NCBI GenBank assembly: GCA_944363635.1
Contig: CALVUP010000001.1
Coordinates: 16,235 to 80,234 of the forward strand
DNA from: an uncultured Bacilli bacterium
GTDB lineage: Bacteria; Bacillota_I; Bacilli_A; RF39; UBA660
Direction: 5' to 3'
Length of the DNA: 64,000 nucleotides
Shown here one piece after another: positions 1-24,038 of the stretch (the stretch's first letter is position 1; each line of letters opens with the position of its first letter). Both the position numbers and the translations under genes were made by a program. Below the pieces are notes generated by a model, which was not told where the DNA came from, did not search any database, and worked only from the letters and a program-made list of their open reading frames with translations.

Positions 1-1703
1 ATTTCATCTTAGATGAGTTTGCAAATATGCCACCTTTAAAAGATGTAACGACGATGATTACCGCTGCACGTTCTAGACAGATTCGTTTTACAATGATCAT
101 TCAAAACTTTGCCCAATTAAATCAAGTATATGGAAAAGAAAATGCGGAAACAATAAAAGGAAACTGTGGAAATATTATCTATTTAATTTCAACAGAACTT
201 GCTGCATTAGAAGAAATTAGTAAATTGTGTGGAGAAGTCAAAAGCAAAAAAGACGATAAAACAGCATCCACACCACTTGTTACAGTCAGTGACTTACAGC
301 GTATGAAACAATTTGATCAAATTGTACTTCGTATGCGTTCACAACCTTTTAAAACCCATTTTGTTCCTGATTTTCAAATCGATTGGGGAAAGAAATATGG
401 ACAAATTGGTTACCCAACAAGAGAAAAAAGACCAGTAGAAGTTTTTGATATAAGAGATTTTGTAAAAGAAAGAAAAAAACAAAAATTATTTGAAATGATG
501 AATTCAAACGATGAGAAGCCATCTGCATTACCAGGGAATAATACCTCTTCTGCACCAAATCCATTTAAACAGAGTTTGGGCAATGATCCTTTCAAGCAAC
601 CTGCACTTAATCATGCCCCAAAAAAGGATGAGGATGATTTTGATGTAGATGCTCTTGTAAGAAAAATCGACGCTAAAATAGCTCAATTAGAAGCTGAAGA
701 AAAAGCTGAAAAAGAAAAGAAAAATCCAATGACGAGTGCGTCTTTAGAACCAAAGCCAACTTTATTGAACTCTACATTTGAAAACGCTAAGTCACAAATA
801 GAGCATAAGGATAATTTAAAAACGTCACAAGAACAGAAACCTACATTATTAAATTCCACATTCAATAATGTAAAGCCAAGCGTAGATCATGAAACATCGC
901 CAGTACAAGAAGAAGAAAAACCAACCATTTTAGGATCTACCTTTACTAACGTAAATCAACAACAAAAAGAAGAAAAGAAGCCAGTAGATGTTGATTCTAT
1001 ACTTACAAAATTAGATGAGCAAATTTATGAGAAAAAGGAACCAACACCGATGCCAAAAGAGGATAAACCAACTATTTTAGGATCTACATTTACGAATACA
1101 AAGCAACCAGAAAGAAAAGACGAAAAAGAGGTTGATCTTGATACTTTATTAAATAAGGTAAATAAAAAATTACAAGAAGCAGAAGAAAAAGCAGAGCCTA
1201 AAAAAGAATCTCCAGTGGTTAAACCATCTTCTATTTACGAAGGAAAAGTAGAACCATCCGATATTCGAATTGATTATTCATCTCGTGATGAAGATACACT
1301 GGATACTTTTAAAGAAACAACAGTTCCAACAAAAGTAGAAACGAGTAAACAAGATCACGAATTACTAGATGAAATTAATACGGTTTTAAATCATAAACCA
1401 GAACCAAAAGCAAATACTTCTGATATGATGATTGAACCAAAAATATTTGAAGATACCATCGATGATAAGAAAGAGAATGTATATAATTTGGATAATACAA
1501 TGAATGATTTAAATCATAAGAAAGAAAAAAATACATATAGTAAAGAAACACCTGTTTCAAAGATTGATCAAACAAGTACACCTGAAAAAGAAACGTCAAA
1601 TTCTTCTGTTATGATCAATAATGACATTATTATTGATAAAGATTCTACCGAAGATGATGATAATTTCTTTGATGATTTCTTTGATGATGATGATTGGAGT
1701 TAG
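1..1703 (+). CDS. C-terminal part of a VirD4/TraG-family type IV coupling protein, 5' end outside the window, with a long K/E/P/T-rich repetitive tail
   Basis: Frame is open from nt 1 (FILDEFANMPPL...). Motifs ILDEFAN, AARSRQIRFTMIIQNFAQL and GNCGNIIYL match the T4CP C-terminal ATPase region. Residues from about 180 onward are low-complexity with four degenerate 'KPT(L/I)LNSTF' repeats. Confidence 0.6.
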   Translation, partial: FILDEFANMPPLKDVTTMITAARSRQIRFTMIIQNFAQLNQVYGKENAETIKGNCGNIIYLISTELAALEEISKLCGEVKSKKDDKTASTPLVTVSDLQRMKQFDQIVLRMRSQPFKTHFVPDFQIDWGKKYGQIGYPTREKRPVEVFDIRDFVKERKKQKLFEMMNSNDEKPSALPGNNTSSAPNPFKQSLGNDPFKQPALNHAPKKDEDDFDVDALVRKIDAKIAQLEAEEKAEKEKKNPMTSASLEPKPTLLNSTFENAKSQIEHKDNLKTSQEQKPTLLNSTFNNVKPSVDHETSPVQEEEKPTILGSTFTNVNQQQKEEKKPVDVDSILTKLDEQIYEKKEPTPMPKEDKPTILGSTFTNTKQPERKDEKEVDLDTLLNKVNKKLQEAEEKAEPKKESPVVKPSSIYEGKVEPSDIRIDYSSRDEDTLDTFKETTVPTKVETSKQDHELLDEINTVLNHKPEPKANTSDMMIEPKIFEDTIDDKKENVYNLDNTMNDLNHKKEKNTYSKETPVSKIDQTSTPEKETSNSSVMINNDIIIDKDSTEDDDNFFDDFFDDDDWS

Positions 1704-1708
1704 AAAGA

Positions 1709-2716
1709 ATGAAAGTTTTATTATATGCGGAAGGTGAAAAAATAATTGGGAAAAGTGGCTTAGGTAAGGCGATCAAGCACCAACAAAAAGCCTTAGAATC
1801 TTGTGGTGTAGAATATACTATGGATCCTAAAGATAATTATGATTTGATTCATATAAATACTTATGGGCCAAAGTCTTACCTTTTAGCAAAAAAAGCCAAA
1901 AAAGAAGGGAAAGTTGTTATTTATCATGCTCATTCTACTGAAGAAGATTTTAAAAATTCCTTTATTTTATCAAATAAGATATCTCCTTATTTTAAAAAAT
2001 GGATTATGAAATGTTATAATTTAGGAGATTATATTATTACACCAACACCTTATGCAAAAAAATTATTATCTTCTTATGGAATAAAAAAGCCAATCGAAGT
2101 AGTTTCCAATGGAATTGATTTATCTCTTTTTGATACGAAAAAAACCAATTGTTTTCGTCAAAAATTTAATTATACAAAGCAAGACAAAATCATTTTAGGA
2201 ATTGGTTTATATTTGGAGAGAAAAGGGATTTTGGATTTTGTGGAACTTGCGAAAAGAATGCCGGAATATAAATTTATTTGGTTTGGATATTCACCACTAA
2301 GTTTATCTCCAAAAAAGATTAAGGACGCAGTAAATACCAAACTTTCCAATTTACTTTTTGCAGGATATCAAGAGCCAGAAATGGTAAAAGCGGCTTTATC
2401 AGAGTGTGATTTATACTTATTTCCTACTTTAGAAGAGACAGAAGGAATTCCAATTATTGAAGCTTGTGCTATGAAATGTGATTCTTTAATTCGAGATATT
2501 CCTGTATTTGATCAATGGCTTATTAATGGGAAAAATGTATATAAAGCAAAAAATTTAGATGAGTTTGAAATAAAGATTAAAAAAATTTTAAATCACGAAT
2601 TACCATCTTTAACAGAAGAAGCTTATAAAGTAGCAAAACAAAGAGATTTAAAAGGAATAGGTAAAAAATTAAAAAGAATATATGAAAAAGCTTTAAAAGA
2701 AAAAGTGAATATCTAA
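1709..2716 (+). CDS. GT4-family glycosyltransferase
   Basis: Motif 'ETEGIPIIEACAMKCDSL' (EX7E) and overall glycosyltransferase pattern. Start moved to ATG 1709 (GGAG upstream), same frame as track ORF 1694. Confidence 0.65.
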   Translation: MKVLLYAEGEKIIGKSGLGKAIKHQQKALESCGVEYTMDPKDNYDLIHINTYGPKSYLLAKKAKKEGKVVIYHAHSTEEDFKNSFILSNKISPYFKKWIMKCYNLGDYIITPTPYAKKLLSSYGIKKPIEVVSNGIDLSLFDTKKTNCFRQKFNYTKQDKIILGIGLYLERKGILDFVELAKRMPEYKFIWFGYSPLSLSPKKIKDAVNTKLSNLLFAGYQEPEMVKAALSECDLYLFPTLEETEGIPIIEACAMKCDSLIRDIPVFDQWLINGKNVYKAKNLDEFEIKIKKILNHELPSLTEEAYKVAKQRDLKGIGKKLKRIYEKALKEKVNI

Positions 2717-2780
2717 AATATTCTTTTTTTTGTATAATTTTTTTATATTATTCCAAATTATAAATAAAGGAGGAATAATT

Positions 2781-3320
2781 ATGAAAAAAATAGCTGTGTT
2801 TTTAATGGGATTGTTTTTATTAACTGGTTGTACATCTTTAATGAATACACCCACAGATAAAGTAGAGGAATATTTAGATAAATATAAAACCACAGATGAA
2901 GATGTTTTAGACCAATTAGAAGATGTTGTGGATGAAGTAGGAACGATGAATGATGATAATAAAGAAAGATACAAAGAATTAATGAAAAAACAATATCAAA
3001 ATTTATCTTACAAAATTAAAGATGAAACCATTGATGGCGATAATGCTACAGTTGAAGCTGAAATAGAAGTTTATGATTATAAAAGTTCAACCGATGAATC
3101 GGATCGTTATTTGAGTGAACATAATGATGAGTTTGTAGATGATGAAAATAATATTGATAATGATAAATTTATGACTTATAAACTTGATGCTCTTGATAAA
3201 GTAACTGATAAAGTAACTTATACCATTACTTTCTCATTAACCAAAGATGCCGATGGAAATTGGAAGCTGGATGATATTTCAGATGAAGATCGATTAAAAT
3301 TACATGGATTATATTCTTAA
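2781..3320 (+). CDS. lipoprotein of unknown function
   Basis: GGAGG RBS then MKKIAVFLMGLFLLTGCTS (signal peptide plus lipobox LTGC). Start trimmed from track 2730, in frame. Confidence 0.6.
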   Translation: MKKIAVFLMGLFLLTGCTSLMNTPTDKVEEYLDKYKTTDEDVLDQLEDVVDEVGTMNDDNKERYKELMKKQYQNLSYKIKDETIDGDNATVEAEIEVYDYKSSTDESDRYLSEHNDEFVDDENNIDNDKFMTYKLDALDKVTDKVTYTITFSLTKDADGNWKLDDISDEDRLKLHGLYS

Positions 3321-3376
3321 GAAACTGGAATAGTTTCTTTTTTTTATGAATATATTTAATTGAAAGAGGGGAGATT

Positions 3377-4189
3377 ATGAAACAAATTATACCTTTTAAT
3401 AAAGATATTGCATTCAAAACCATGATTGGAGAAATACAATCTATATCTTTAGAACATACTTTAAAAATAGAGGAAGATAACAATATTAAAGGGGATTTTA
3501 TTGTTAGTGGTAGTTATAAAATGACAGAAGCTTCTACCATTGCCGAAGAATTTTCTTATAAAATACCAGTGGATATTTATATTGATGAACAATACAATTT
3601 AGAAGATGCTACGATAGATATTGATGATTTCAAATATAGCATAGTCAATGATGATACTTTAGAAGTAAAAATAGATGTTGTACTTGATCACATGCAAGTG
3701 ATTGAACCTATAAGTGATATTAGTACTGATGAAGAAGTCATTCGTACACATCTAGATAAAGAGTATTTAAAACGAAAAGAAGATCTTCAAGATGTTACCG
3801 AGCAAACACAAAATGAAGAAGAAAAAGAAGAACTACTAGAATCTAAGAAAGAAGAGGAAACTTCTATGCGAAATACGAGTGATAAACAGAATAGTTCAGA
3901 ACAAATTTATACAACAAAAAATAAAGAAATGGTAGATGAGATACAAATTCCAATAGAAACATCCGATACGAAAGAACAAGAACCTGTAGAATCTTTATTT
4001 AGTAAATTTAGTGATGAAGAAGATAGCTATGCCACTTACAAAGTATATATTGTAAGAGAAAATGATAATTTAGAATCGATTATGGAAAAATACAATGTTT
4101 CTGTAGATGAACTTAGAGAGTACAATAACATTGATGATTTAAAAATAAATGATAAGCTAATCATACCATCTCATAATGAACACGCTTAG
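3377..4189 (+). CDS. SpoVID-like protein (SPOCS-like N-terminus, C-terminal LysM)
   Basis: N-terminus resembles the SpoVID/SPOCS region and the C-terminus carries LysM ('YKVYIVRENDNLESIMEKYNVSVDELREYNNI'). Followed by a CotS/YsxE-like gene, as in Bacillus spoVID-ysxE. Confidence 0.45.
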   Translation: MKQIIPFNKDIAFKTMIGEIQSISLEHTLKIEEDNNIKGDFIVSGSYKMTEASTIAEEFSYKIPVDIYIDEQYNLEDATIDIDDFKYSIVNDDTLEVKIDVVLDHMQVIEPISDISTDEEVIRTHLDKEYLKRKEDLQDVTEQTQNEEEKEELLESKKEEETSMRNTSDKQNSSEQIYTTKNKEMVDEIQIPIETSDTKEQEPVESLFSKFSDEEDSYATYKVYIVRENDNLESIMEKYNVSVDELREYNNIDDLKINDKLIIPSHNEHA

Positions 4190-5060
4190 AAGTCTAGTTG
4201 AAAATATTGATAAAATAACTAAGCAAAAAAATAGAACCATCATACAAGCAAAGGATAAAAGGTATGTTGCAAAAGAAAACAAAAATAAAATGATTTATGA
4301 CTATTTAAGTAGTCGAGGTTTTATGTACTATTTAGAACCATTAAAAAGAAATGAAGATTATAATTTATATCAATATATCGAAGAAATAGATACTCCAAAT
4401 GAACAAAAAGCATTAGACATTATTCATATTATGGCCTTACTTCATAAAAAAACAACCTATTATAAAGAAATAAATTTAGATGAAATTAAAGAAATTTATG
4501 AAAACACCACAAATCAAATCTTATATTTATTTGAATACTATCATAATTTACAAGAAACTTTGGAACAAGAAGAATTTTTTTCTCCAAGTTCTTATATGTT
4601 GCTGCGTGAAATATCTTCAATTTATGGCAGTCTAAATTACTGTAAAGAAGAAATTGATCGTTGGTATGAAACAATAAAACAAAAAAAGGAGATACGTCTT
4701 TGTTTAGTGCATAACAACTTAGATATCTCTCATATACTAGAAAGTGAAAACAAGTATTTGATTAGTTGGTCTAAAGCGAAAAAAGATTTACCAATTTATG
4801 ATTTTTATCATTTTTTTAATAATTGTTTTGAAATGATGGATTTTTCTCTTTTATATAAGGAGTATATAGCAAATTATCCATTAACCAAAGAGGAAGAAGC
4901 GCTATTGTTTGTGTTTATTTCAATACCAGAAAAGGTTATATTAGATTTAGATGAATATACGAATTGTTTAAAAATTAAAAAATTATATACAAAATTATCC
5001 CGTGCGAATAATATTATTTTAAATCAAAGATCGAAACAACAAAAACAAGAACAACCATAA
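4176..5060 (+). CDS. CotS/YsxE-family spore-coat/phosphotransferase-like protein
   Basis: 'LCLVHNNLDISHIL...LISWSKAKKDLPIYDFYHFF' resembles the kinase-like CotS/YutH/YsxE core. 14-nt overlap with the upstream gene. Confidence 0.4.
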   Translation: MNTLRSLVENIDKITKQKNRTIIQAKDKRYVAKENKNKMIYDYLSSRGFMYYLEPLKRNEDYNLYQYIEEIDTPNEQKALDIIHIMALLHKKTTYYKEINLDEIKEIYENTTNQILYLFEYYHNLQETLEQEEFFSPSSYMLLREISSIYGSLNYCKEEIDRWYETIKQKKEIRLCLVHNNLDISHILESENKYLISWSKAKKDLPIYDFYHFFNNCFEMMDFSLLYKEYIANYPLTKEEEALLFVFISIPEKVILDLDEYTNCLKIKKLYTKLSRANNIILNQRSKQQKQEQP

Positions 5061-5231
5061 TTCTAAAACAAGGATAAATGCAACAGAACGACAAGGGTTA
5101 ATAAGACATAAAATGGATTGATACATTAAAATAATAAATAGAATAAGAATAAAAACAAGGTTTAGAAGAGAAAATCTTCTTTTTTTTCTACACATTTCAC
5201 AAAAGCAAAAGAAACCATGTTTTCGTCCCAT
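5019..5231 (-). CDS. possible small Cys-rich membrane peptide, 70 aa
   Basis: AGGTGA RBS 5 nt before ATG. 'CFCEMC' then two hydrophobic helices. Overlaps the 3' end of the YsxE-like gene. Confidence 0.25.
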   Translation of the reverse strand: MGRKHGFFCFCEMCRKKRRFSLLNLVFILILFIILMYQSILCLINPCRSVAFILVLELWLFLFLLFRSLI

Positions 5232-5367
5232 TTATATCACCTAGTATATTGTATGAAAAAAAGAAATTTGTGTTATAAGATAATTAAATAGGTATAAAAT
5301 ATTATTGTAATGACAATGTGCCCACAAAAATAAAAAAAGACATACAATAGAACTGTGAGGTGAGAAA

Positions 5368-5655
5368 ATGAATAGTATGCCAAAATCAACGAATCTAAAC
5401 ATTCGGTTAGATAAAGAATTGAAAGAACAAGCAGATAAGCTATTTAAAAAGCTAGGATTAAATATGTCAAGTGCAATTAATTTGTTTTTAACACAAAGTG
5501 TAAAAGAACAAGGAATACCATTTTTAATAACCGATAAAAAGCCAACTAAAAAGCTACAAAAAGCACTTCAAGAAGCTGATGCTATTGCTAGTGGTAAAAA
5601 AGAAACAAAAAGTTATACCAACTTTGAAGAGTTGCTTAAGGATTTGGATAAATGA
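5368..5655 (+). CDS. dinJ: type II antitoxin, RelB/DinJ family
   Basis: AGGTGA RBS. 'NLNIRLDKELKEQADKLFKKLGLNMSSAINLFLTQSVKEQGIPF' is the DinJ ribbon-helix-helix pattern. Overlaps the next gene by ATGA. Confidence 0.75.
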   Translation: MNSMPKSTNLNIRLDKELKEQADKLFKKLGLNMSSAINLFLTQSVKEQGIPFLITDKKPTKKLQKALQEADAIASGKKETKSYTNFEELLKDLDK

Positions 5656-5938
5656 ATTATCAATTAAAGCAAACTTCAATATTTAAAAAACAATTAAAAA
5701 AAATGATTAAACGAAAAAAAGACTTAAATAAAATGAGCAATATAGTAAATCGTTTACTTGCTGGTAAAACACTTGAAGAAAAATATAGAGATCATCAGTT
5801 GTTTGATGATAAAAAATATAAAAGTTGTAGGGAATGTCATGTTGAGCGGATTGGTTGTTAGTATATCAATATTTAGAAGATCAATTAATATTATTATTAA
5901 TACAGACGGGTAGTCATAGTGATTTATTTAAGAAATAA
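5652..5938 (+). pseudogene. yafQ: yafQ-family RelE-type toxin with a 1-nt deletion frameshift
   Basis: Frame 0 gives ...YRDHQLFDDKKYKSCRECHVE then RIGC*. The -1 frame continues ADWLLVYQYLEDQLILLIQTGSHSDLFKK*, matching the YafQ C-terminus (HVEPDWLLIY...RTGSHSDLF). The shift lies in 'gagcggattgg' near 5844-5852. Confidence 0.7.
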
Positions 5939-5941
5939 ATA

Positions 5942-6197
5942 TTTACAAAATTCAAATTATCCTGTATAATACGTTTATAAATGCGTTGGATTGAGGAGTA
6001 TATTTATAAGAGTTTAAGAGAGTTATCGTTTGGTGGGAGATAATACTTAAATAAATAGAAGGTAGCAATCAAGTAGAATTTTTGAGAAATCGAAAGTAGA
6101 AAATTCCGTATCTCGCGTTAAGAGAAAGAGGTTATTATAAATAATAAACTAAGGTGGTACCACGAAAGATTCGTCCTTATGATGAATCTTTTTTTAT
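5942..6197 (+). promoter_or_regulatory. T-box leader with promoter and terminator, upstream of the HD-domain gene and valS
   Basis: TTTACA (5942-5947), 17 nt, TGTATAAT (5963-5970). T-box core 'aactaaggtggtaccacg' at 6147-6164. Terminator stem aagattc (6166-6172) / gaatctt (6184-6190) plus T7 run. Specifier codon not resolved. Confidence 0.65.
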
Positions 6198-6211
6198 TGC
6201 TTGGAGGGATT

Positions 6212-6946
6212 ATGGATAAATATATAGAAGCATTTGAAAACTATGTAGCATCATTTGATCTCGAGGTTTCACAGTTAAAAAGAAAAAAAGAACATACTTA
6301 TCGGGTCATAAAACTTTGTATGGAGATTGCCAAGTCTCTACAAATGAATGATCATGATGTTTTCCTTATGAAATTAATTGGCTTGTATCATGATATAGGT
6401 CGTTTTGATCAATTCAAACAGTTTTCTAAATTCAATGATTCTGAAACATATGATCATGCTTCTAAAGGAGTAATAATTTTAAATACTTTACAAATATTAG
6501 ATGATTTAGAAGAAAAAGATTTAATTTTAAAAGCTATTGAAAATCATAATCAAATCAAATTAGAAGAAAATCTTTCTCCAAGAGAAAAGCAGTTCTGCGA
6601 GATCATAAGAGATGCAGATAAACTTGATATATTAAACTTAGTAATCGAAGGTAAAATTAAGATGAATCCTTATGATGAAAAATATAGTGAGAAAGCTGTC
6701 CAAACGATTTTGAATGGAGAATGCATCGATTTAAAAGAATATCCAAGAAAGGTCGATCAATCTTTAGTAAAAATAGGATTGATGAATGATATTGTATTTC
6801 CGTTTTCGAAACAATATATTCTAAAAAATAATATGATTGATGAGTTAATAGAAATTTATATAAAGAATAACCCAAAAGAAAAAGATACATTAGAAAAAAT
6901 AAAGAAGAAAGTAAAAGAAAGGATGAATGATACAAATGTTAGATAA
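6212..6946 (+). CDS. HD-domain phosphohydrolase
   Basis: 'LIGLYHDIGRFDQF' HD motif. Start moved from 6179, which lies inside the T-box terminator, to ATG 6212 with a GGAGGG RBS. Confidence 0.6.
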   Translation: MDKYIEAFENYVASFDLEVSQLKRKKEHTYRVIKLCMEIAKSLQMNDHDVFLMKLIGLYHDIGRFDQFKQFSKFNDSETYDHASKGVIILNTLQILDDLEEKDLILKAIENHNQIKLEENLSPREKQFCEIIRDADKLDILNLVIEGKIKMNPYDEKYSEKAVQTILNGECIDLKEYPRKVDQSLVKIGLMNDIVFPFSKQYILKNNMIDELIEIYIKNNPKEKDTLEKIKKKVKERMNDTNVR

Positions 6947-9365
6947 AAAATATAATTTTAAAGAAAAAGAAGAAAAATGGGAGAAATATTGGGAAGAGAA
7001 TAATATTTATGAATTTAAGCCTGATCATAGAAAGGTTTATTCTATCGATACCCCGCCACCAACTGTAAATGGAAAAATTCATATAGGACATATATTTTCT
7101 TATTCACAAGCTGAAATGATTGCAAGATATAAAAGAATGATGGGATACAATGTTTTTTATCCTTTTGGTTTTGATGATAATGGGCTTCCAAGTGAGCGAC
7201 TTGTCGAAAGAGAACAAGGAAAAAAGGCTCATGAAATAGGAAGAGAAGAATTCTCAAAACTTTGTTATGATACTACGAATAAATATGAAGCGGAGTTTAA
7301 AAAACTATTTAAACGTGCTGGATTTAGTGCAGATGTAGATCATGCTTATAAAACAGTAAGTCCATCTAGTTCTAAGATCAGTCAATTATCTTTTTTAGAA
7401 CTTGTAGAAAAGGGACATTGCTATCATAAAGAAAGTCCTGCTCTTTGGTGTAGTGAATGTTTAACTTCTATTGCTCAAGCCGAGTTAGAAACTAAAACGA
7501 TAAAAACAACATTTAATTACATTCATTTTTATACCAAAGAAGATCATGAAGAATTTACCATTGCGACCACTAGACCCGAACTTCTTCCAGCTATTGTTTG
7601 TGTATTTGTAAATCCAAGTGATGAAAAACATAAACATTTAATTGGTAAGACGGCTTGCATTCCGGTCGTAGAAGAAGAAGTACCAATTCTTGCCGATGAA
7701 AAAGTTGCCATTGATAAAGGTACAGGTGTCGTTATGTGTTGTACGTTTGGAGATCAAACCGATATTGAATGGTGGAAAAAATACAATTTGCCACTTAAGA
7801 ATATCTTTACAAAAGATGGGCATATTGTAGATACAGTAAAAAATTATGGTGGATTAACCATTAAACAAGCTAGAAAACAGATCATTGAGGATATTAAAGA
7901 AGCCGGATATTTAGTAAAAGTAGAAGATTTGGAGCATGAAGTACAAACGCATGAGCGATGCGGAAGAGAAGTAGAATATGCTGTTATGAATCAATGGTTT
8001 ATTGATATCATGAATCATAAAGAAGATTTCTTACGTATTGGGGATGAAATCAATTGGTATCCAAAACACATGCAAGCAAGATACAACGAATGGGTAGAAA
8101 ATATCATGTGGGATTGGTGTATTTCAAGACAAAGATATTTTGGTGTACCATTTCCTGTATGGTATTGTAAAGATTGTGGTGAACCTATTTTCGCAAGAAA
8201 AGAAGATTTACCAGTCAATCCACTTGTAGATAAACCTCCTGTAGAAAAGTGTCCAAAATGCGGATCTTCTGAATTCATAGGAGAAACAGATATTATGGAT
8301 ACATGGCAAACATCTTCTGTTACACCTTTAATTAATATGAAATATGGAGAAAAAGACAACCTAGAAGACATTTTAAAACCAATGTCCTTAAGATGCAATG
8401 CCCATGATATCATTCGTACTTGGGATTTCTATAGTATTGTAAAAAGTTATTATACCTTTCTTCAAAAACCTTGGGAAAATGTAATGATTTCCGGATTTGT
8501 AATGGCCGATAAAGGAGAAAAAATCTCTAAAAGTAAAAACAATTCTAAAATGGAACCATTTGAATTATTAGAACAGTATGGAGCGGATATTGTTCGTTAC
8601 TGGGCTGGATCTGGTAAATTAGGTACCGATATCATCTTTAATGATGAAACATTCTTAAGAGGAAAGAAATTGATCAATAAGATTTGGAATGTATCTAAAT
8701 TTATCGAAATGCATTTACAAGATTACAAAGACAAAGAAATTAAAAATTATGAATACATGGATCGTTTTATTTTAGCAAAATACAAAAAAATGGAAGAAGC
8801 TTTCTTAAAATATTTAGATGAATATGAAATTGGGCTTGCTTTAAATATTTTAGAAAAATTCTTCTGGGAATTCTGTGATAATTACATTGAAATTGTAAAA
8901 CATAGATTGTATAGGCCAGAAGAGTTTGGAGAAGAAGCACGTTATTCCGGACAAAAAACCATTTATACTTTGCTTTATAAATTGTTACAAGACTTCTCTA
9001 TTTTCTTCCCATTTATCACAGAAGAAATTTATCAAGATTTATATAAGAAAGAAAAATCTATTCATTTAACAACGATTGAGCCATTAGAAGTCTCTTACGA
9101 AGAAGAAAGAAAAAACGGTGATTTATTATTAGAAATCATCAGTGTTTGCAGAGGAGAAAAAACCAAAAACAATGTATCTTTAAAAACACCTATCAAAAAC
9201 CTTGAACTTGGTTTATCAAAAGAGTTAAATCAAGCTTTAGAAGAAGCCATAAAAGATATAAAAGCTACATTATTTATCGAAAATATGAGTCGAAAAGAAA
9301 TAGATTCTTCTTATGAAATTTATAAGATTGAATTAGATTTGGAAGAAAAAAATGGAGGAGAATAA
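6927..9365 (+). CDS. valS: valine--tRNA ligase
   Basis: 'PPPTVNGKIHIGH' (HIGH), 'KISKSKNN' (KMSKS) and valS-type editing/CP1 regions. Start ambiguous by about 9 nt (ATG 6927 or 6936). Confidence 0.9.
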   Translation: MIQMLDKKYNFKEKEEKWEKYWEENNIYEFKPDHRKVYSIDTPPPTVNGKIHIGHIFSYSQAEMIARYKRMMGYNVFYPFGFDDNGLPSERLVEREQGKKAHEIGREEFSKLCYDTTNKYEAEFKKLFKRAGFSADVDHAYKTVSPSSSKISQLSFLELVEKGHCYHKESPALWCSECLTSIAQAELETKTIKTTFNYIHFYTKEDHEEFTIATTRPELLPAIVCVFVNPSDEKHKHLIGKTACIPVVEEEVPILADEKVAIDKGTGVVMCCTFGDQTDIEWWKKYNLPLKNIFTKDGHIVDTVKNYGGLTIKQARKQIIEDIKEAGYLVKVEDLEHEVQTHERCGREVEYAVMNQWFIDIMNHKEDFLRIGDEINWYPKHMQARYNEWVENIMWDWCISRQRYFGVPFPVWYCKDCGEPIFARKEDLPVNPLVDKPPVEKCPKCGSSEFIGETDIMDTWQTSSVTPLINMKYGEKDNLEDILKPMSLRCNAHDIIRTWDFYSIVKSYYTFLQKPWENVMISGFVMADKGEKISKSKNNSKMEPFELLEQYGADIVRYWAGSGKLGTDIIFNDETFLRGKKLINKIWNVSKFIEMHLQDYKDKEIKNYEYMDRFILAKYKKMEEAFLKYLDEYEIGLALNILEKFFWEFCDNYIEIVKHRLYRPEEFGEEARYSGQKTIYTLLYKLLQDFSIFFPFITEEIYQDLYKKEKSIHLTTIEPLEVSYEEERKNGDLLLEIISVCRGEKTKNNVSLKTPIKNLELGLSKELNQALEEAIKDIKATLFIENMSRKEIDSSYEIYKIELDLEEKNGGE

Positions 9366-18683: not shown

Positions 18684-19784
18684 ATGAATAAGTATATGAA
18701 AGTAATGTTTGGTACTACATCAGGTGCTAAAAACAATCTAAATTATAAGATTGATGAAATAAATATCGCAGACAATTGGAATCCTCGTGCAAATCATCCA
18801 TCCAAAATGGGAGGCTTTAATTTTAGTACAGAAGATAAAATATTTAGATGGCTTATTCGTGGCGATACAATTTATGACGTTATTATCCCAAGTGATTCTG
18901 AAGTAATCAATTGTCCTAGTGAGTCAGCACCTAATGGAGTCTTTAGAAGTAATAAAATAATCCTTCATAATCCTAGAGCTGTTACTGATGATTTGGCGAT
19001 GGATTTGTATATAAAATCAGATTTACCAGAAAAATCTTATTATAAAGCTTTAATAGGTTGCGCTATTAGAGGATATAGAAACACTTGTTTAAAAGTGATT
19101 CGTGATCGTGTAAACAAAAAGAATATTGATCTTGTTTTAAGTGAGGTTAATGATTTTATTACCCCATATAGAAGCAGTGGTGCTGCTAAAAGTGGTATTG
19201 AAGTTTACAATGAAGTTATGCAATATTTAGAGGAAATAAAATCTGATTTATTGATCAGTCGATTTATTGATAAAAATCCCTATATAAAAAAGATAACAGA
19301 TGATAAAGTGATTAATTTAACTGGAGAGTCTGGTAGTGGTAAATCCTATTTTAGTAAAAGATATTTAGAAGATGATCAATATATTGTTATTGATACAGAT
19401 GTTGTATTTGGAAAAGGAAAATCCAATAATAAAGAGAGTGTAGAGTTACGAGAAGTGTTTAAAGACAAACCAAAAGATGTCTTGATTTCTGACTTTGATT
19501 ACTGTTATTTGAAGATTCTCAATCATTTTAAAGGCTGTAAGAAAACAATAGTTATAGATTCTGCTCAATATAGAAATATAAAAGATTATTCTATTTTAAA
19601 AGGGAAAGTCATTGTAATAAGAACCAATATTGAAACTTGTTATGAAAGATGTCTAAATAGACGGAAAGCGATGACTAAAGATTATACGAAAGAAGACTTT
19701 CAAAATTATGCGAAGAGAAAGATGGCGATGTTTTCGTGGTATAAAAGATTAAATGAATTTTTGTTAAACGTTGATAAACGATAA
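18684..19784 (+). CDS. two-domain protein: unknown N-terminal domain plus P-loop kinase-like domain
   Basis: Walker A 'LTGESGSGKSYF' near residue 215. Downstream 'VIDTD...DSAQYRN' resembles AAA_33/zeta-toxin/PNK-like kinases. N-terminal 200 aa unrecognised. Confidence 0.5.
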   Translation: MNKYMKVMFGTTSGAKNNLNYKIDEINIADNWNPRANHPSKMGGFNFSTEDKIFRWLIRGDTIYDVIIPSDSEVINCPSESAPNGVFRSNKIILHNPRAVTDDLAMDLYIKSDLPEKSYYKALIGCAIRGYRNTCLKVIRDRVNKKNIDLVLSEVNDFITPYRSSGAAKSGIEVYNEVMQYLEEIKSDLLISRFIDKNPYIKKITDDKVINLTGESGSGKSYFSKRYLEDDQYIVIDTDVVFGKGKSNNKESVELREVFKDKPKDVLISDFDYCYLKILNHFKGCKKTIVIDSAQYRNIKDYSILKGKVIVIRTNIETCYERCLNRRKAMTKDYTKEDFQNYAKRKMAMFSWYKRLNEFLLNVDKR

Positions 19785-20562: not shown

Positions 20563-20636
20563 TGCCCCATAGCCAAGCGGTAAGGCGCTGGACTCTGACT
20601 CCAGGAGCGTTAGTTCGAATCTAACTGGGGCAGCCA
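20563..20636 (+). tRNA. tRNA-Gln (anticodon CUG)
   Basis: Hand-folded. U1:A72 pair with G73 discriminator typical of tRNA-Gln. D-arm identical to B. subtilis tRNA-Gln. Anticodon loop cuCUGac. TTCGAAT T-loop. CCA encoded. Confidence 0.8.
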
Positions 20637-20639
20637 CAT

Positions 20640-20715
20640 GCCGAAATAGCTCAGTTGGTAGAGCAGCTGTCTCGTAATCAGCAGGTCGTAGGTTCAAGTC
20701 CTATTTTCGGCACCA
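20640..20715 (+). tRNA. tRNA-Thr (anticodon CGU)
   Basis: Cloverleaf gccgaaa...tttcggc-a-cca. D-arm gctcagttggtagagc. Anticodon loop ctCGTaa. Close to Bacillus tRNA-Thr. Confidence 0.85.
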
Positions 20716-20801
20716 GAAGAGTTTAATCTAAACATTTAGGTGTTTCGGATAATTTATAAATAGAACTTGTCAAAAGTTCTTTTTTATGCTATTATGAATA
20801 T

Positions 20802-20930
20802 GTCAAGGGAATTTGCATAAAATAAAAAAGGGAACATTCAGTTTCGTCAAGTTGAATGTCTACCTAATAAATTGCCTTATGGCACTTATTCAGCGACACT
20901 TATTCTAACGAATGAGTGTCATTTTTTTAT
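20802..20930 (+). ncRNA. candidate antisense RNA of TA-like locus C
   Basis: TTGTCA (20767-20772), 17 nt, TATTAT (20790-20795). Same 5' hairpin family as locus B. Terminator gacacttattc/gaatgagtgtc plus T7 at 20895-20930, with compensatory changes relative to locus B. Confidence 0.35.
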
Positions 20931-21011
20931 TACGACTATCATAATGATAAGGAGAAATAAAATGATAGTAATGAGCTTAAGAACTTTTATTATAAAAGCC
21001 TTAGTTTTCAT
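20919..21011 (-). CDS. candidate type I toxin-like peptide, 30 aa (locus C)
   Basis: GGAGG RBS. MKTKAFIIKVLKLITIILFLLIIMIVVIKK. 5' UTR 'accagttgttgagt' conserved with locus B. Confidence 0.55.
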   Translation of the reverse strand: MKTKAFIIKVLKLITIILFLLIIMIVVIKK

Positions 21012-21395
21012 CTTTATCAAACCTCCTCTCTATAAAGATTAGAGGTAGATACTCAACAACTGATATTCCCTATAAAAAGTATACTATTGAAGGCCTTAAA
21101 AAACAAGCAAACTACTATAATTTTAATAAAAATATTTTATAGCAAAATTTGTTATATTAGTGTTAGAATATTGCTGAAAATTATTCACTATTGTAAAAAT
21201 GTATGATATATTGTTACTGTACTAAGATGATGGTACTGATTTAATCTTGGGTTCAGTATCTAATCCCCTCAAGGCACCAGATTGATAATAAACTCGAACT
21301 TTACTACAGAAAACAATCTTTTGAGATTGTTTTTTTATGTTATAATTAAAAAAGAGAAGTATCCCATAAAACAATACATAGAGGATGTGATTTCT

Positions 21396-21989
21396 ATGTC
21401 TAAAATATCCAATGTAATTACAATGTTACAACTTTTAAGTACAGGAAAGAAATATAGTATTAAAGAATTATCGTACTCCTTAGAAGTAACCGAAAGAATG
21501 GTAAGAATTTATAAAAATGAATTAGAAAAAGCAGGGATTTATATTGATACTATTATGGGTCCATATGGTGGCTATGTACTTAGACAATCCATTAATCTTC
21601 CTATTATAAAATTACAAGAAAGTGATTATCAAGTATTGGATTCTTATATTCAAAAAGAAAAGGATAAAAAGAAAAAAGAACGCTTATTAGAGCTACAAGA
21701 TAAAATGAAAGGGATAGCATTTATTAACAAATCGAGTGTAAATTTAACCGGGGATACACTAGGTAAATACAATTGTTTAACTAGAGCGATTAAAGAAAAA
21801 AGAAAAGTAAAACTTTTATATACCTCTTATCAAAACGGTATCAACGAAAGAATTATTTGTCCTGCTTCTATGTTTTTGTTTCAAGATGGCTGGTATTGTG
21901 TTGCATTTTGTGAGCTAAGAGGGGATATGCGACAATTTGATCTAAAAAGAATTATTGAATACAAATTATTAGATGAAACGTTTATATAG
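21396..21989 (+). CDS. HTH plus WYL-domain transcriptional regulator (YafY/BrxR-like, short form)
   Basis: wHTH 'IKELSYSLEVTERMVRIYKNELEKAGIYID' then WYL-like core 'VKLLYTSYQNGINERIICPASMFLFQDGWYCVAFCELRGDMRQFDL'. Start trimmed to ATG 21396. Confidence 0.55.
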   Translation: MSKISNVITMLQLLSTGKKYSIKELSYSLEVTERMVRIYKNELEKAGIYIDTIMGPYGGYVLRQSINLPIIKLQESDYQVLDSYIQKEKDKKKKERLLELQDKMKGIAFINKSSVNLTGDTLGKYNCLTRAIKEKRKVKLLYTSYQNGINERIICPASMFLFQDGWYCVAFCELRGDMRQFDLKRIIEYKLLDETFI

Positions 21990-22041
21990 ACGATATATTA
22001 CCTACTTAAGTATTACTATATAGTTAAGAGGTGATTTTTTT

Positions 22042-22953
22042 ATGAGTGAAAAAAAAGAAGTTGTTTTTGAATTATTAATCGATAGAGTACTAGATGGACT
22101 AGAAAAAACCGATTCAGAAAGAATAAATTTTATTTTAAAAAATATAAAAGGTCCAACTCTTGTTACAGGAGTAGGGGGTTCCAGTGTAGTCAGTACTTAT
22201 CTAAGTAAGATTTTAGAAGAAAAAAATGGGATTGTTGCTATAAATAAGGAACCAAGAGATATACTTTATATGAATACAAAGCCTTATAAAAATATTATTT
22301 GTTGTAGTTATAGTGGAGAAAACTATGGTGTAGAGCTATCGTTTTCAAATAATTTAGAGCATTATTTATTTTCAAAAAAGCAAAGAGATGATGTTCATAA
22401 CTTAACCTATGTGTGTGATGAGGAAAAGAGTTTTATTTCCCTTTCTGCTACTTTATTACCTATGGCTATTGCCTTAAATTACCATTTAGATCATAATCCT
22501 AGTTTTATAAAAGAAATACTGATGTGTAAAGAGACTCCTTGCATTAAGAGCAATACTGTATTTGAAATTATGAGTGGATATGATACTTCCACAGCTTCTA
22601 CTTTTTTAGAAAGCACTTTAACAGAATCAGGAATTGCAATTCCCATCGTTCATGATAAATATGCTTATTGTCATGGAAGAAGTACAATAAGCTATAAAAA
22701 TAACCATTCTTTAATTTATTTAAATACGAATACCAAATTAGATCAACTTTTATTAGAACAATTAAAGCCGTATTATCAACAGATTATACCATTAAACTTA
22801 AAATATCAAGATCCACTGATCAATGATTTTTATTTTACATATCAAAGTATGTTATTAACGAAAGAACTAGCTGCCTTTGTACAAGAGGATTTAGCACATG
22901 TACAATATTCTCCTGTTGTAAAAAAATTATATAAATATAAAGGAGGAATGTAG
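22042..22953 (+). CDS. double-SIS-domain (sugar-phosphate isomerase/binding fold) protein
   Basis: SIS-1 'LVTGVGGSSVVSTYLSKIL...IICCSYSGEN'. SIS-2 'IMSGYDTSTASTFLESTLTESGIAIPIVHDKYAYCHGRSTI', comparable to the second SIS of GlmS. Confidence 0.55.
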   Translation: MSEKKEVVFELLIDRVLDGLEKTDSERINFILKNIKGPTLVTGVGGSSVVSTYLSKILEEKNGIVAINKEPRDILYMNTKPYKNIICCSYSGENYGVELSFSNNLEHYLFSKKQRDDVHNLTYVCDEEKSFISLSATLLPMAIALNYHLDHNPSFIKEILMCKETPCIKSNTVFEIMSGYDTSTASTFLESTLTESGIAIPIVHDKYAYCHGRSTISYKNNHSLIYLNTNTKLDQLLLEQLKPYYQQIIPLNLKYQDPLINDFYFTYQSMLLTKELAAFVQEDLAHVQYSPVVKKLYKYKGGM

Positions 22954-22954
22954 T

Positions 22955-23569
22955 ATGGAAAAAATTGTTTATGTTACTGGAAATTATGGAAAATATTATC
23001 AAGTAAAAAAACAATTTGAACAACACAATCTTGCCATTGGATTTTTTCACTGCGATTTAGAAGAACCTATGATAAATGATATAAAATACATTTCAAAAAG
23101 AAAAGTAGAACAAGCCTATCAACAATTAAATAGACCGTGTTTTGTTGCTGATTCTGGATTTTATATAGAAGATTACCCTAATCATCCAAACTATCCTGGG
23201 GCGTTTGTTAAAAGAAGTGGGGTAGCAAGTAATATAGATCAACTTTTAATGAATATGAAAGATGTCAAAAATAGAAGCTGCCATTTTGTTGATTGTCTAA
23301 CTTTTTATGATGGAATGACATATTATCAATTTTTTGGTGTTAGTGAAGGAACTTTATCTTATGAAAAAAGAGGGGATTTTCAAAAACAAGCCAAATCCAA
23401 TTTATGGTATGTGTTTATTCCAAAAAACGAGACGAAAACACTTGCAGAAATGACAGAAGAAGAAAGAGAACATCGAAAAGATGATCATACATCAGCAACA
23501 GAGCAATTTATAGAATGGTACAAAAGAGAATATAAAAAAAAGTATGTAAAAAGTAAATTTATGATATAA
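22955..23569 (+). CDS. Ham1/ITPase-family non-canonical NTP pyrophosphatase-like protein
   Basis: 'KIVYVTGNYGKYYQV' (GNxxK), 'FVADSGFYIEDYPNHPNYPGAFVKRS' and 'LAEMTEEEREHRKDDHTSA' align with ITPA/RdgB motifs. Starts 1 nt after the upstream stop. Confidence 0.6.
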   Translation: MEKIVYVTGNYGKYYQVKKQFEQHNLAIGFFHCDLEEPMINDIKYISKRKVEQAYQQLNRPCFVADSGFYIEDYPNHPNYPGAFVKRSGVASNIDQLLMNMKDVKNRSCHFVDCLTFYDGMTYYQFFGVSEGTLSYEKRGDFQKQAKSNLWYVFIPKNETKTLAEMTEEEREHRKDDHTSATEQFIEWYKREYKKKYVKSKFMI

Positions 23570-23600
23570 TTTTTTTAGTAATATATTTTAAGGAGATTGT

Positions 23601-23996
23601 ATGATTAAAGTTTATTTGAAAGATCTTGTGGCCAATGCTATCATTGAAGTGGCCAGTAGAACACAAAGGACTTATGTTACAGGACGAGAATTAAATAATT
23701 ATGGAAGAGAAGTCATAGCAAATTTAAAAACAAAAAACATTCGCGCAAAATTAGAATTGAGTAAAGAGGAAGTTTCTAAATTTAGAAACACATATCAAGA
23801 GTATTTTATTGTTTCTGGAGATGGGTTTCAATTAAATGAAAATAAAAGTATAGAGAATGTAATTGATTCCTTTAGAGGAAACATGTCTTATGAAGTTTTG
23901 CTTTCTTTAGTTGATGACCAAGTTGTAAATAAAAGTTTTAATTTATATTCTCCAAAACAAAAACACCGCATGTTAAGCCGGAAAAATAGATATTAA
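23601..23996 (+). CDS. hypothetical protein, 131 aa, third gene of the operon
   Basis: AAGGAG RBS. No motif recognised. Confidence 0.45.
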   Translation: MIKVYLKDLVANAIIEVASRTQRTYVTGRELNNYGREVIANLKTKNIRAKLELSKEEVSKFRNTYQEYFIVSGDGFQLNENKSIENVIDSFRGNMSYEVLLSLVDDQVVNKSFNLYSPKQKHRMLSRKNRY

Positions 23997-24038
23997 AAAG
24001 ATAGAGTTCTTGGTTCCAAGTTCTATCTTTTTTTTCAA
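23997..24038. terminator. bidirectional rho-independent terminator
   Basis: aaagataga...tctatcttt hairpin with T8 on the plus strand and an A/T run on the minus strand, between convergent genes. Confidence 0.6.

Follow-up and report, generated by a model that had tools for sequence, protein, structure and literature searches.

A conserved 53-nucleotide junction between a helix-turn-helix-WYL regulator gene and a divergent double-SIS protein gene in uncultured gut Bacilli

We analyzed a 64-kb stretch of the genome of an uncultured Bacilli bacterium (contig CALVUP010000001.1 of assembly GCA_944363635.1; hereafter ‘the window’, with 1-based coordinates), in which four same-strand open reading frames (ORFs) encode a helix-turn-helix (HTH)-WYL transcription factor, a protein with a double-SIS fold that we term SISL, a Ham1/ITPase-fold protein and a 131-residue protein. 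The junction between the WYL gene and the payload genes that follow it (53 nt, positions 21989–22041) is a newly noticed compact element, which brings together a conserved upstream box, a promoter-like −10 region and a terminator-like RNA hairpin. The best explanation overall, in which we place moderate confidence, appears to be a vertically inherited module, carried by uncultured gut Bacilli with small genomes, whose house-cleaning payload is driven by a WYL-controlled promoter. We consider it likely that this is a regulated chromosomal enzyme module and not a defense system; the specific chemistry (nucleotide or sugar-phosphate house-cleaning or salvage) is suggested only tentatively.

The layout agrees with an earlier reading made from the sequence alone (the ‘sequence-only reading’), which had given the same four same-strand ORFs with gaps of 52, 1 and 31 nt and had described an HTH-WYL gene, a double-SIS fold, a Ham1 domain, a 131-residue product without recognizable motif and a bidirectional terminator, all of which are present. 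The features of the locus are as follows.

21308–21335, forward strand: terminator-like hairpin closing the upstream tRNA/small-ORF region (−10.1 kcal/mol and z −2.9, with a U-run on its 3′ side).
21338–21346, forward strand: putative promoter of the WYL gene with an extended −10, TGTTATAAT, read from the sequence.
21396–21989, forward strand: HTH-WYL transcription factor, 197 aa (Pfam, PADLOC).
21989–22003, forward strand: conserved upstream box, GACGATATATTACCT, with the consensus GAC-n-A-n-ATA-n-T-n-CCT; putative site of the WYL protein (conservation).
21997–22041, forward strand: terminator-like RNA hairpin (21997–22035) with a U-run (22035–22041) (folding, covariance model).
22011–22019, forward strand: predicted internal promoter −10 region, with TACTAT at 22014–22019, in the hairpin loop (conservation).
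22042–22953, forward strand: SISL, probable divergent GlmS/FrlB-type double-SIS phosphosugar enzyme, 303 aa (profile comparison).
22955–23569, forward strand: Ham1/ITPase-fold nucleoside triphosphate (NTP) pyrophosphatase with an apparently altered base pocket, 204 aa (Pfam, alignment with PH1917).
23601–23996, forward strand: 131-aa protein, lineage-specific operon member (ORF, homolog clusters).
23995–24036, no single strand: bidirectional intrinsic terminator, common to a convergent arylsulfotransferase gene (folding).

Relatives of SISL were sought in one genome per species of the GTDB taxonomy and were found in at least 182 species; 80 of the 182 species loci were inspected, together with a handful of Ham1 contexts, and the related sequences that enter the counts below are not independent. 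Across these loci, the approximately 53 nt from the WYL stop codon to the SISL start codon are conserved at the nucleotide level where the proteins themselves are only 50–60% identical. The hairpin has 12–16 basepairs, its 3′ arm is the SISL Shine-Dalgarno sequence, and it is followed by a U-run in approximately 90% of cases. In the window it buries the Shine-Dalgarno sequence GAGGTGA (22028–22034) and has a predicted folding energy of −13.4 kcal/mol for the sense strand versus −7.3 kcal/mol for the antisense strand.

For the junction we used a covariance model hand-seeded on 13 sequences, in combination with per-sequence folds and pair counts; RNAalifold, run on a MAFFT alignment of the junctions, returned no structure because the 3′ arms were misaligned. 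The covariance model gave exactly one match per locus, always at the junction (in the window at 21989–22041, with 41 bits and an E value of 3e-6). Compensatory changes were present in 10 of 12 pairs, and 93.8% of cells were paired, versus at most 60% with slid partners and with none of 500 shuffles as good; these covariation figures are upper bounds, since they come from related sequences in an alignment fitted to the model. Rfam 15 gave no family at 21989–22041, whether with the gathering cut-off or with E values of up to 1. Among 64 distinct elements, the sense strand was predicted to fold more stably than the antisense strand in 59 (mean energies of −15.9 versus −11.1 kcal/mol), with 109 GU pairs in the sense strand versus 21 in the antisense strand. 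This bias in sense-strand stability, and the accompanying excess of GU pairs, argue for selection acting on the RNA and not only on a DNA palindrome.

The box (GAC-N3-ATA-N3-CCT, at approximately −37 to −23) has its GAC, ATA and CCT 98–100% conserved in the same 64 elements and has no second copy in the 64-kb window. It is kept in distant loci of the PfkB-SIS and Ham1 types, and both the box and the −10 are kept where the 3′ arm of the hairpin has been deleted (L093, L238 and L240). The most conserved positions of the hairpin loop are key promoter bases (G−14 in 91% of the 64 elements, T−12 in 100%, A−11 in 97% and T−7 in 86%). Of the 57 elements that contain TAnnnT, 53 have it beginning at a distance of exactly 22 nt from the GAC, the distance being 23 nt in Ham1-type and PfkB-type loci, and TGnTAnnnT occurs in 46% of elements versus 6.5% of shuffles; the −10 of the window is without the TG that most relatives carry. 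A −35-like hexamer at the position of the box would leave a spacer of 21–22 nt, too long for an ordinary sigma-70 promoter, and no −35 was found at functional spacing from the −10 in the elements. Scanning metagenomes and viral contigs with the box as a 17-mer yielded mostly chance matches; the covariance model then identified a true element in only 25 of 80 metagenome loci and in none of 20 viral loci scanned.

These observations suggest the following mechanism. Transcripts from the WYL promoter would stop at the hairpin and U-run, and those that read through would carry a masked SISL ribosome-binding site, so that payload expression would rest on the internal promoter. A transcript starting approximately 7 nt after the −10 in the loop would lack the 5′ arm of the hairpin, and would therefore be translatable. 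That promoter, having no usable −35, would depend on WYL protein bound at the box, which most likely activates it, as PafBC does at promoters without a −35, and ligand binding by the WYL domain would set its activity. The sequences themselves show the gene content, the folds, the conserved residues, a conserved and covarying element and which genes occur together; that the promoter depends on the WYL protein, how it is controlled, by what ligand, and which substrates the enzymes use are all inferred. We lean weakly toward activation over repression, mainly because the −35 is missing and in addition because a different promoter has taken the place of the box and leader, by replacement or deletion, in L038 and L051, two of three loci without WYL. 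In locus L073 only a C-terminal remnant of the WYL gene is left, yet the box and leader are intact.

A different, and in our view unlikely, interpretation is that the junction acts chiefly as DNA, as an operator through which a WYL dimer would repress the promoter, or that the hairpin only couples translation of SISL to that of WYL, with no WYL-dependent activation. BrxR and CapW are repressors that bind palindromes, and the inverted repeat of the junction could likewise be a repressor operator, its inner arms (AAGT...ACTT) being fairly conserved and flanking the −10; the distance of 10–15 nt from the WYL stop codon to the stem would also allow translational coupling. An operator or a coupling device would, however, leave several features unaccounted for: the strand bias, GU excess and compensatory changes point to pairing in RNA, the box and −10 persist where the 3′ arm is gone, a functionally spaced −35 is missing, and L038 and L051, having lost WYL, did not keep the box and leader.

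Its domains place the regulator in the HTH-WYL family, with Pfam matches to WYL (residues 128–190, 2.2e-15) and HTH_11 (residues 9–60, 8.3e-6) and a further match to an Rrf2-like family (2.9e-5). It matches the PADLOC WYL model at 3e-29, the best PADLOC model being that of a CRISPR-associated WYL protein. Its chain of 197 residues stops 7 residues past the WYL domain and is without the C-terminal extension known as WCX, and the WYL paralogs at Ham1-type loci are shorter still, at 158–171 residues. The mean identity of the WYL proteins is 68% across 75 species. Elements resembling TGnTATAAT lie 15–30 nt upstream of most WYL orthologs, and no conserved motif was found upstream of the WYL genes beyond such ordinary extended −10 promoters. 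In one metagenome-assembled genome (MAG), CAKOTU01, two WYL-SISL pairs are present (L067 and L071), one with a 199-aa WYL flavor and the other with one of 194–197 aa, which indicates that there are at least two paralogous lineages of the pair.

The best solved-structure match of the regulator is PafBC, a mycobacterial WYL activator of a LexA-independent DNA-damage regulon (PDB 6sj9 and 7p5x), to which its Sm-like WYL domain aligns at 9e-6 (6sj9). PafBC acts at its −26 element, responds to single-stranded DNA as its ligand, and is a fused tandem of approximately 660 residues. The likeness extends to the promoter, in that a good −10 (TAnnnT) is combined with an upstream element, putatively factor-bound here, in place of a usable −35. 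The regulator described here differs in its size, having a single HTH followed by a single WYL domain and lacking WCX, in an unlike box sequence, and in being associated with one adjacent operon and not a regulon, as judged by the single box in the 64-kb window. BrxR and CapW, to which the regulator has weak sequence matches (7t8k and 7qfz), resemble it in being HTH-WYL regulators encoded directly upstream of the genes they control; they differ in having approximately 290–300 residues with a WCX domain and defense genes as neighbors, whereas the neighbors here are two metabolic-type enzymes in a core-genome context.

SISL is represented by 1319 homolog clusters of approximately 300–307 aa, none of which has a Pfam domain or a useful name, and the family is compact, since only 338 clusters among 1.84e9 cluster representatives are related to it. 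The SISL of the window matches no Pfam family, including the SIS model PF01380, which only the distant PfkB-fused relatives reach. Two tandem SIS alpha/beta subdomains are nevertheless discernible. Residues G45, S47, E195, H211 and G212 are invariant in members down to 20% identity, with G46, G92, E128, F131, H204, K206 and Y297 near-invariant, and the first SIS domain keeps its phosphate loops as G45-G46-S47 (GGS) and S89-x-S91-G92 (SxSG). A profile of close homologs only matched nothing in the PDB, distant relatives being needed; a profile from a broad alignment reached solved double-SIS proteins at E values of 2e-6 to 3e-5, and placed E195...H211-G212 against the E-x15-H-G motif seen as ‘LME...YFHGP’ in 3eua (FrlB-like) and as ‘LE...FRHGP’ in 3odp (AgaS-like). 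We take that motif to be the catalytic Glu/His pair, 16 residues apart, of GlmS, FrlB and FraB-type enzymes. The closest structures are glucosamine 6-phosphate (GlcN6P) deaminases, AgaS, the GlmS isomerase domain and FrlB, with an identity to characterized enzymes of only 10–14%. Based on the invariant residues, the profile matches, the Glu/His motif and the phosphate loops, we believe that SISL is probably an active, very divergent GlmS/FrlB-type phosphosugar isomerase- or deglycase-like enzyme. That low identity and the missing Pfam SIS match set it apart from FrlB/FrlD, AgaS, GlmD and the GlmS isomerase domain, as do its lack of a glutaminase domain and its partnership with WYL and Ham1 and not with transporters or kinases.

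Fusion proteins join Ham1 to SISL (P0123 and P0177), and PfkB sugar kinases are found fused to more remote members of the SISL family; one such PfkB-SIS fusion (L089) has an HTH-WYL gene and the same leader directly before it, and a Ham1-SISL fusion gene is likewise directly preceded by a WYL gene. The PfkB subfamily of the fusions is ambiguous, since the ribose-1-phosphate kinase, fructokinase and ribokinase models all score far below their cut-offs, and we rejected it as an argument for a pentose-bisphosphate-type pathway. At L092 (positions 635–2474 and 2953–7412 of that locus), another distant PfkB-SIS fusion gene overlaps the end of a gene for an 824-aa HAD (Cof-type) hydrolase and adjoins genes for an NgoMIV-type restriction enzyme and a DNA methylase, with no WYL gene called there. 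A SISL subfamily (L039, L040, L049, L060, L068–L070, L072 and L078; proteins P0121, P0122, P0127, P0130 and P0132) has an additional conserved N-terminal alpha+beta domain of approximately 115 aa, which has no Pfam match, carries the motif ILxDEYIxWL...FDDxYFVHN...IDYxxFKK and is predicted with a per-residue confidence (pLDDT) of 70–93.

The 204-aa protein matches the Pfam family Ham1p_like over its full length (9.5e-20) and is matched by PH1917 at 3.4e-13; its subfamily comprises 870 clusters at E ≤ 1e-10. Like the house-cleaning ITP/XTP pyrophosphatases RdgB, ITPA and PH1917 it has the Ham1 fold with the catalytic motifs TxNxxK (T8-G-N10-Y-G-K13) and DSG (D66-S-G), and it differs from them in the motifs by which hypoxanthine and xanthine bases are recognized (FGYDPIF to NLWYVFIP and SHR to DDH in the alignment with PH1917), in scoring under every NCBIfam equivalog cut-off and in being linked to WYL in the loci seen. 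The protein thus appears to be an NTP pyrophosphatase by its fold, with the catalytic core kept and the base pocket remodeled. The 131-aa protein has no match in Pfam, PADLOC or PHROGs and a single sub-threshold match in NCBIfam (E value of 0.03); it has only 5 homolog clusters among 5.8e9 proteins, and in the relatives examined (3 loci, from 2 of the 4 non-identical clusters) it again directly follows Ham1. It is a lineage-specific add-on of the species group to which the window belongs.

The species that carry SISL are all represented by gut MAGs labeled ‘Bacilli’, ‘Tenericutes’ or CAG-type, with genomes of approximately 1.2–1.4 Mb, which presumably belong to the GTDB order RF39; NCBI places one named genus of the group in Bacilli incertae sedis. 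In approximately 73 of the 80 loci (approximately 90%), SISL is directly preceded by an HTH-WYL gene, the exceptions being due to contig ends, WYL remnants (L051 and L073), an ABC-transporter insertion (L063) and loss of WYL with promoter replacement (L038 and L040). In L063 (positions 1408–5939) the insertion consists of three genes, for a 1068-aa ABC-type protein and two membrane proteins, and parts WYL from an intact leader and SISL. WYL and SISL also flank all of 25 further metagenomic elements, where the contig allows. The functional coupling to WYL that the sequence-only reading had proposed is thus borne out, also by the Ham1-SISL fusions and by the WYL-Ham1 adjacency described below; its remark that it knew of no described SIS plus Ham1 pairing is in keeping with our results, in that the library searched held no paper connecting WYL to either SIS or Ham1. 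When all ORFs in the flanks were clustered, nothing besides WYL proved to be conserved.

The genes around the module are core genes in conserved synteny (csp-hpf-secA upstream and prfB-ftsE-ftsX downstream, and hisS). Pairwise identities correlate with those of the adjacent PrfB (r of 0.90 for SISL and 0.88 for WYL), and for the same genome pairs WYL is 78% identical versus 69% for PrfB. The guanine-cytosine (GC) content is flat across the region, and no relatives of SISL were found in IMG/VR, GenBank phages or PLSDB plasmids. Together, the core-gene flanks, the tracking of PrfB, the flat GC content and the absence of phage, viral and plasmid copies bear the signature of a vertically inherited chromosomal module and not of a defense island.

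Ham1 directly follows SISL in only approximately 18 of the 80 loci. Four Ham1 genes picked for their long contigs were looked up, and in all four, which are independent loci, a short HTH-WYL gene (approximately 42% identical to the WYL protein of the window) lies directly upstream and an intact SISL is absent. Two of these loci hold in-frame deletion remnants of SISL between leader and Ham1, a 67-codon ORF in L242 and a 13-codon ORF in L244, which keep the SISL start and the C-terminal ‘...KLYKYRGxM’; the 1-nt coupling to Ham1 is preserved even across the SISL deletions. In the closest syntenic relatives of the window (L093–L095) the operon is WYL-Ham1-126aa-HD, SISL having been cleanly deleted with the 5′ half of the leader kept. 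In view of these remnants and of the clean deletion, the order WYL-SISL-Ham1, as in the window, looks ancestral, with one or the other enzyme repeatedly lost. The proposal that the four genes form a unit therefore stands for their coupling to WYL and fails for strict linkage, since Ham1 follows SISL in a minority of loci and the 131-aa gene occurs in this species group only. A toxin-antitoxin relationship between WYL and SISL was considered and rejected, since SISL persists without WYL (L038, L040 and L051) and WYL without SISL (L093–L095 and L238–L246).

In L242 (positions 436–3904) and L243 (positions 127–3595), hpf is separated from WYL-(SISL remnant)-Ham1-HD by integrase, HTH_3 and Rep genes, and another WYL-Ham1 locus (L241, positions 1–703) has a Mob_Pre gene on its upstream side. 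Since those of L242 are located between hpf and WYL, beside the ancestral position, mobile elements seem to insert next to the module and not to carry it.

The neighbors that recur along with Ham1 and SISL offer a possible indication of function. HD phosphohydrolases recur, as do two NUDIX families, a family-4 uracil-DNA glycosylase (UDG)-like protein and a Nuc_deoxyri_tr2 protein; L005 adds a dTMP kinase and an OGG-domain protein, and in L238 (positions 5686–8569) WYL-Ham1 is followed on the same strand by HD, IMPase/HisN-like and His_Phos_1 genes with two small ORFs interleaved. Ham1, HD and NUDIX proteins typically hydrolyze nucleotides, PfkB kinases yield phosphomonoesters and SIS domains bind phosphosugars. 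The recurrence of Ham1, HD, NUDIX, phosphatase and PfkB kinase partners together with SIS suggests a role in house-cleaning or salvage, in which the payload would remove or recycle abnormal nucleotides and their sugar-phosphate products, with no attack on phage. The WYL gene is not routinely found without the operon, and a core nucleotide operon, which the sequence-only reading would have counted against itself, is partly in evidence in that Ham1, HD, NUDIX, UDG-like and dTMP kinase genes recur as neighbors. A more specific version, which we regard as speculative and hardly likely in all its parts, is that WYL is a ligand-activated switch of a box-dependent promoter without a −35, a one-operon analog of the sigma adaptation of PafBC, and that the payload is a hitherto unrecognized inducible pathway for breaking down a purine nucleotide that is damaged or modified and for processing the sugar-phosphate or glycated product.

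Several points weigh against the house-cleaning module as outlined here, in addition to the possible operator and translational coupling discussed above. Going by the GlmS/FrlB fold, the substrates would be phosphates of hexoses or amino sugars, which have no obvious tie to the chemistry of Ham1; repeated losses of SISL from loci that kept Ham1, and of Ham1 from loci that kept SISL, mean that the two need not share a pathway; SISL occurs without WYL in a few loci (L038, L040 and L051); and mobile-element genes lie near some WYL-Ham1 loci. The nucleotide-related neighbors come in part from groups of related species, their recurrence being a raw count, and all sequences are from MAGs or metagenomes.

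Some of the same observations could be accommodated by an ordinary amino-sugar or Amadori catabolic gene (resembling those for GlcN6P deaminase, AgaS or FrlB) under a local regulator, Ham1 being a housekeeping RdgB that shares the transcription unit in some lineages; we think this improbable, to about the same degree as the repressor-operator view of the junction. The nearest structures of SISL, the fusion of its distant relatives to PfkB kinases in the manner of the FrlD/FrlB pair, the HAD phosphatase that adjoins one of them and the evolutionary separability of SISL and Ham1 would all be in line with it. No transporter, phosphotransferase system (PTS) or other catabolic gene is conserved alongside, however, and the divergence of SISL from characterized enzymes, without a Pfam SIS match, is hard to reconcile with an ordinary member of such families. 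The Ham1-SISL fusions, the 1-nt coupling retained across SISL deletions, and the independent association of both enzymes with the same regulator family and the same box likewise speak against this reading, and to our knowledge WYL regulators are not known for sugar catabolism.

A WYL-gated anti-phage defense or stress island, in which SIS and Ham1 would deplete or sense nucleotides during infection (for instance with a Ham1-like sensor as in Kongming), is in our judgment very unlikely, even though WYL regulators control BREX and CBASS systems, the best PADLOC match of the regulator is the CRISPR-associated model, the base pocket of Ham1 is non-canonical, the payload content differs between lineages, some WYL-Ham1 loci have Integrase/Rep and Mob_Pre genes in their vicinity, and KomB, the Ham1-like protein of the Kongming complex, matches the Ham1 protein of the window at 2e-8. 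Kongming combines KomA (a deaminase), KomB and KomC (SIR2), and neither the operon nor the related loci seen had a SIR2 or deaminase gene called; identity with Kongming was thus rejected, the Ham1 match standing alone. The module contains no effector-type partner (SIR2, TIR, nuclease or pore protein), none of the three payload proteins has a PADLOC match, and PHROGs returned nothing meaningful for them. SISL keeps the active site of a metabolic enzyme, and the module lies neither beside known or candidate defense genes nor in a mobile element, the mobile genes of L242 being placed beside its ancestral position. Its occurrence in at least 182 species in syntenic core-gene neighborhoods, the divergence that follows PrfB with WYL more conserved than PrfB, and its absence from the viral, phage and plasmid collections searched also run counter to the framing of the locus as a defense or accessory island, which the data do not support.

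The regulated enzyme module that we favor would have several implications. WYL regulators are mostly discussed in connection with phage defense or DNA-damage regulons, and the one described here is tied to two metabolic-type enzymes in hundreds of uncultured gut species, which would widen the role of the family; for annotation pipelines, it is a warning against labeling WYL-adjacent genes as ‘defense’ by association. More than 1300 SISL clusters are without a Pfam model or annotation and yet appear to have an intact GlmS/FrlB-type active site, and the repeated fusion of SISL to Ham1 or PfkB kinases provides a concrete handle on its substrate. If the ligand-activated switch and the purine-nucleotide pathway prove correct, SISL would represent a new family of enzymes that repair nucleotides or metabolites in gut Bacilli with reduced genomes, and the 53-nt junction would be a new compact switch combining terminator, promoter and ribosome-binding-site mask. 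Its design, which is open to testing, has the promoter −10 in a hairpin loop, and only transcripts that read through would have their ribosome-binding site masked by that hairpin. Like riboswitch expression platforms and attenuators, the junction has a hairpin with a U-run, a 3′ arm that holds the ribosome-binding site, and covariation; it differs from them in having no aptamer-sized structure and no Rfam match and in the promoter −10 in its loop, so that RNA from that promoter would lack the 5′ arm.

The remaining features of the locus concern its borders. The terminator at 23995–24036 has predicted energies of −13.3 kcal/mol on one strand and −13.5 kcal/mol on the other (z of −4.7 and −5.6), with an A-run and a U-run as flanks. 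A tRNA-Gln (20563–20636) and a tRNA-Thr (20640–20715) lie approximately 680 nt upstream of the WYL gene, in what had been taken for a tRNA hotspot; this idea did not hold up, since tRNA proximity is not conserved and the closest relatives have no tRNAs there. In the interval between tRNAs and WYL gene (20716–21396), a strong terminator-like hairpin (20895–20920, −15 kcal/mol) is followed by a 26-codon hydrophobic ORF with its own Shine-Dalgarno sequence (approximately 20963–21042, MIVMSLRTFIIKALVFIFIKPPLYKD), which lies between that hairpin and the one at 21308–21335. This stretch of small ORF and hairpins is what the sequence-only reading had called a ‘type-I TA-like locus’ (TA, toxin-antitoxin). 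In the closest relatives (L093), neither it nor the tRNAs are present between a VTT-domain gene and WYL. Elsewhere in the window, positions 18684–19784 encode a 366-aa protein with the P-loop GESGSGKS, which matched no NCBIfam family and gave weak PHROG matches (Sak4-like/ATPase, E value of approximately 1e-3), and a T-box leader unrelated to the operon is located at 5977–6181 (Rfam RF00230, 110.7 bits).

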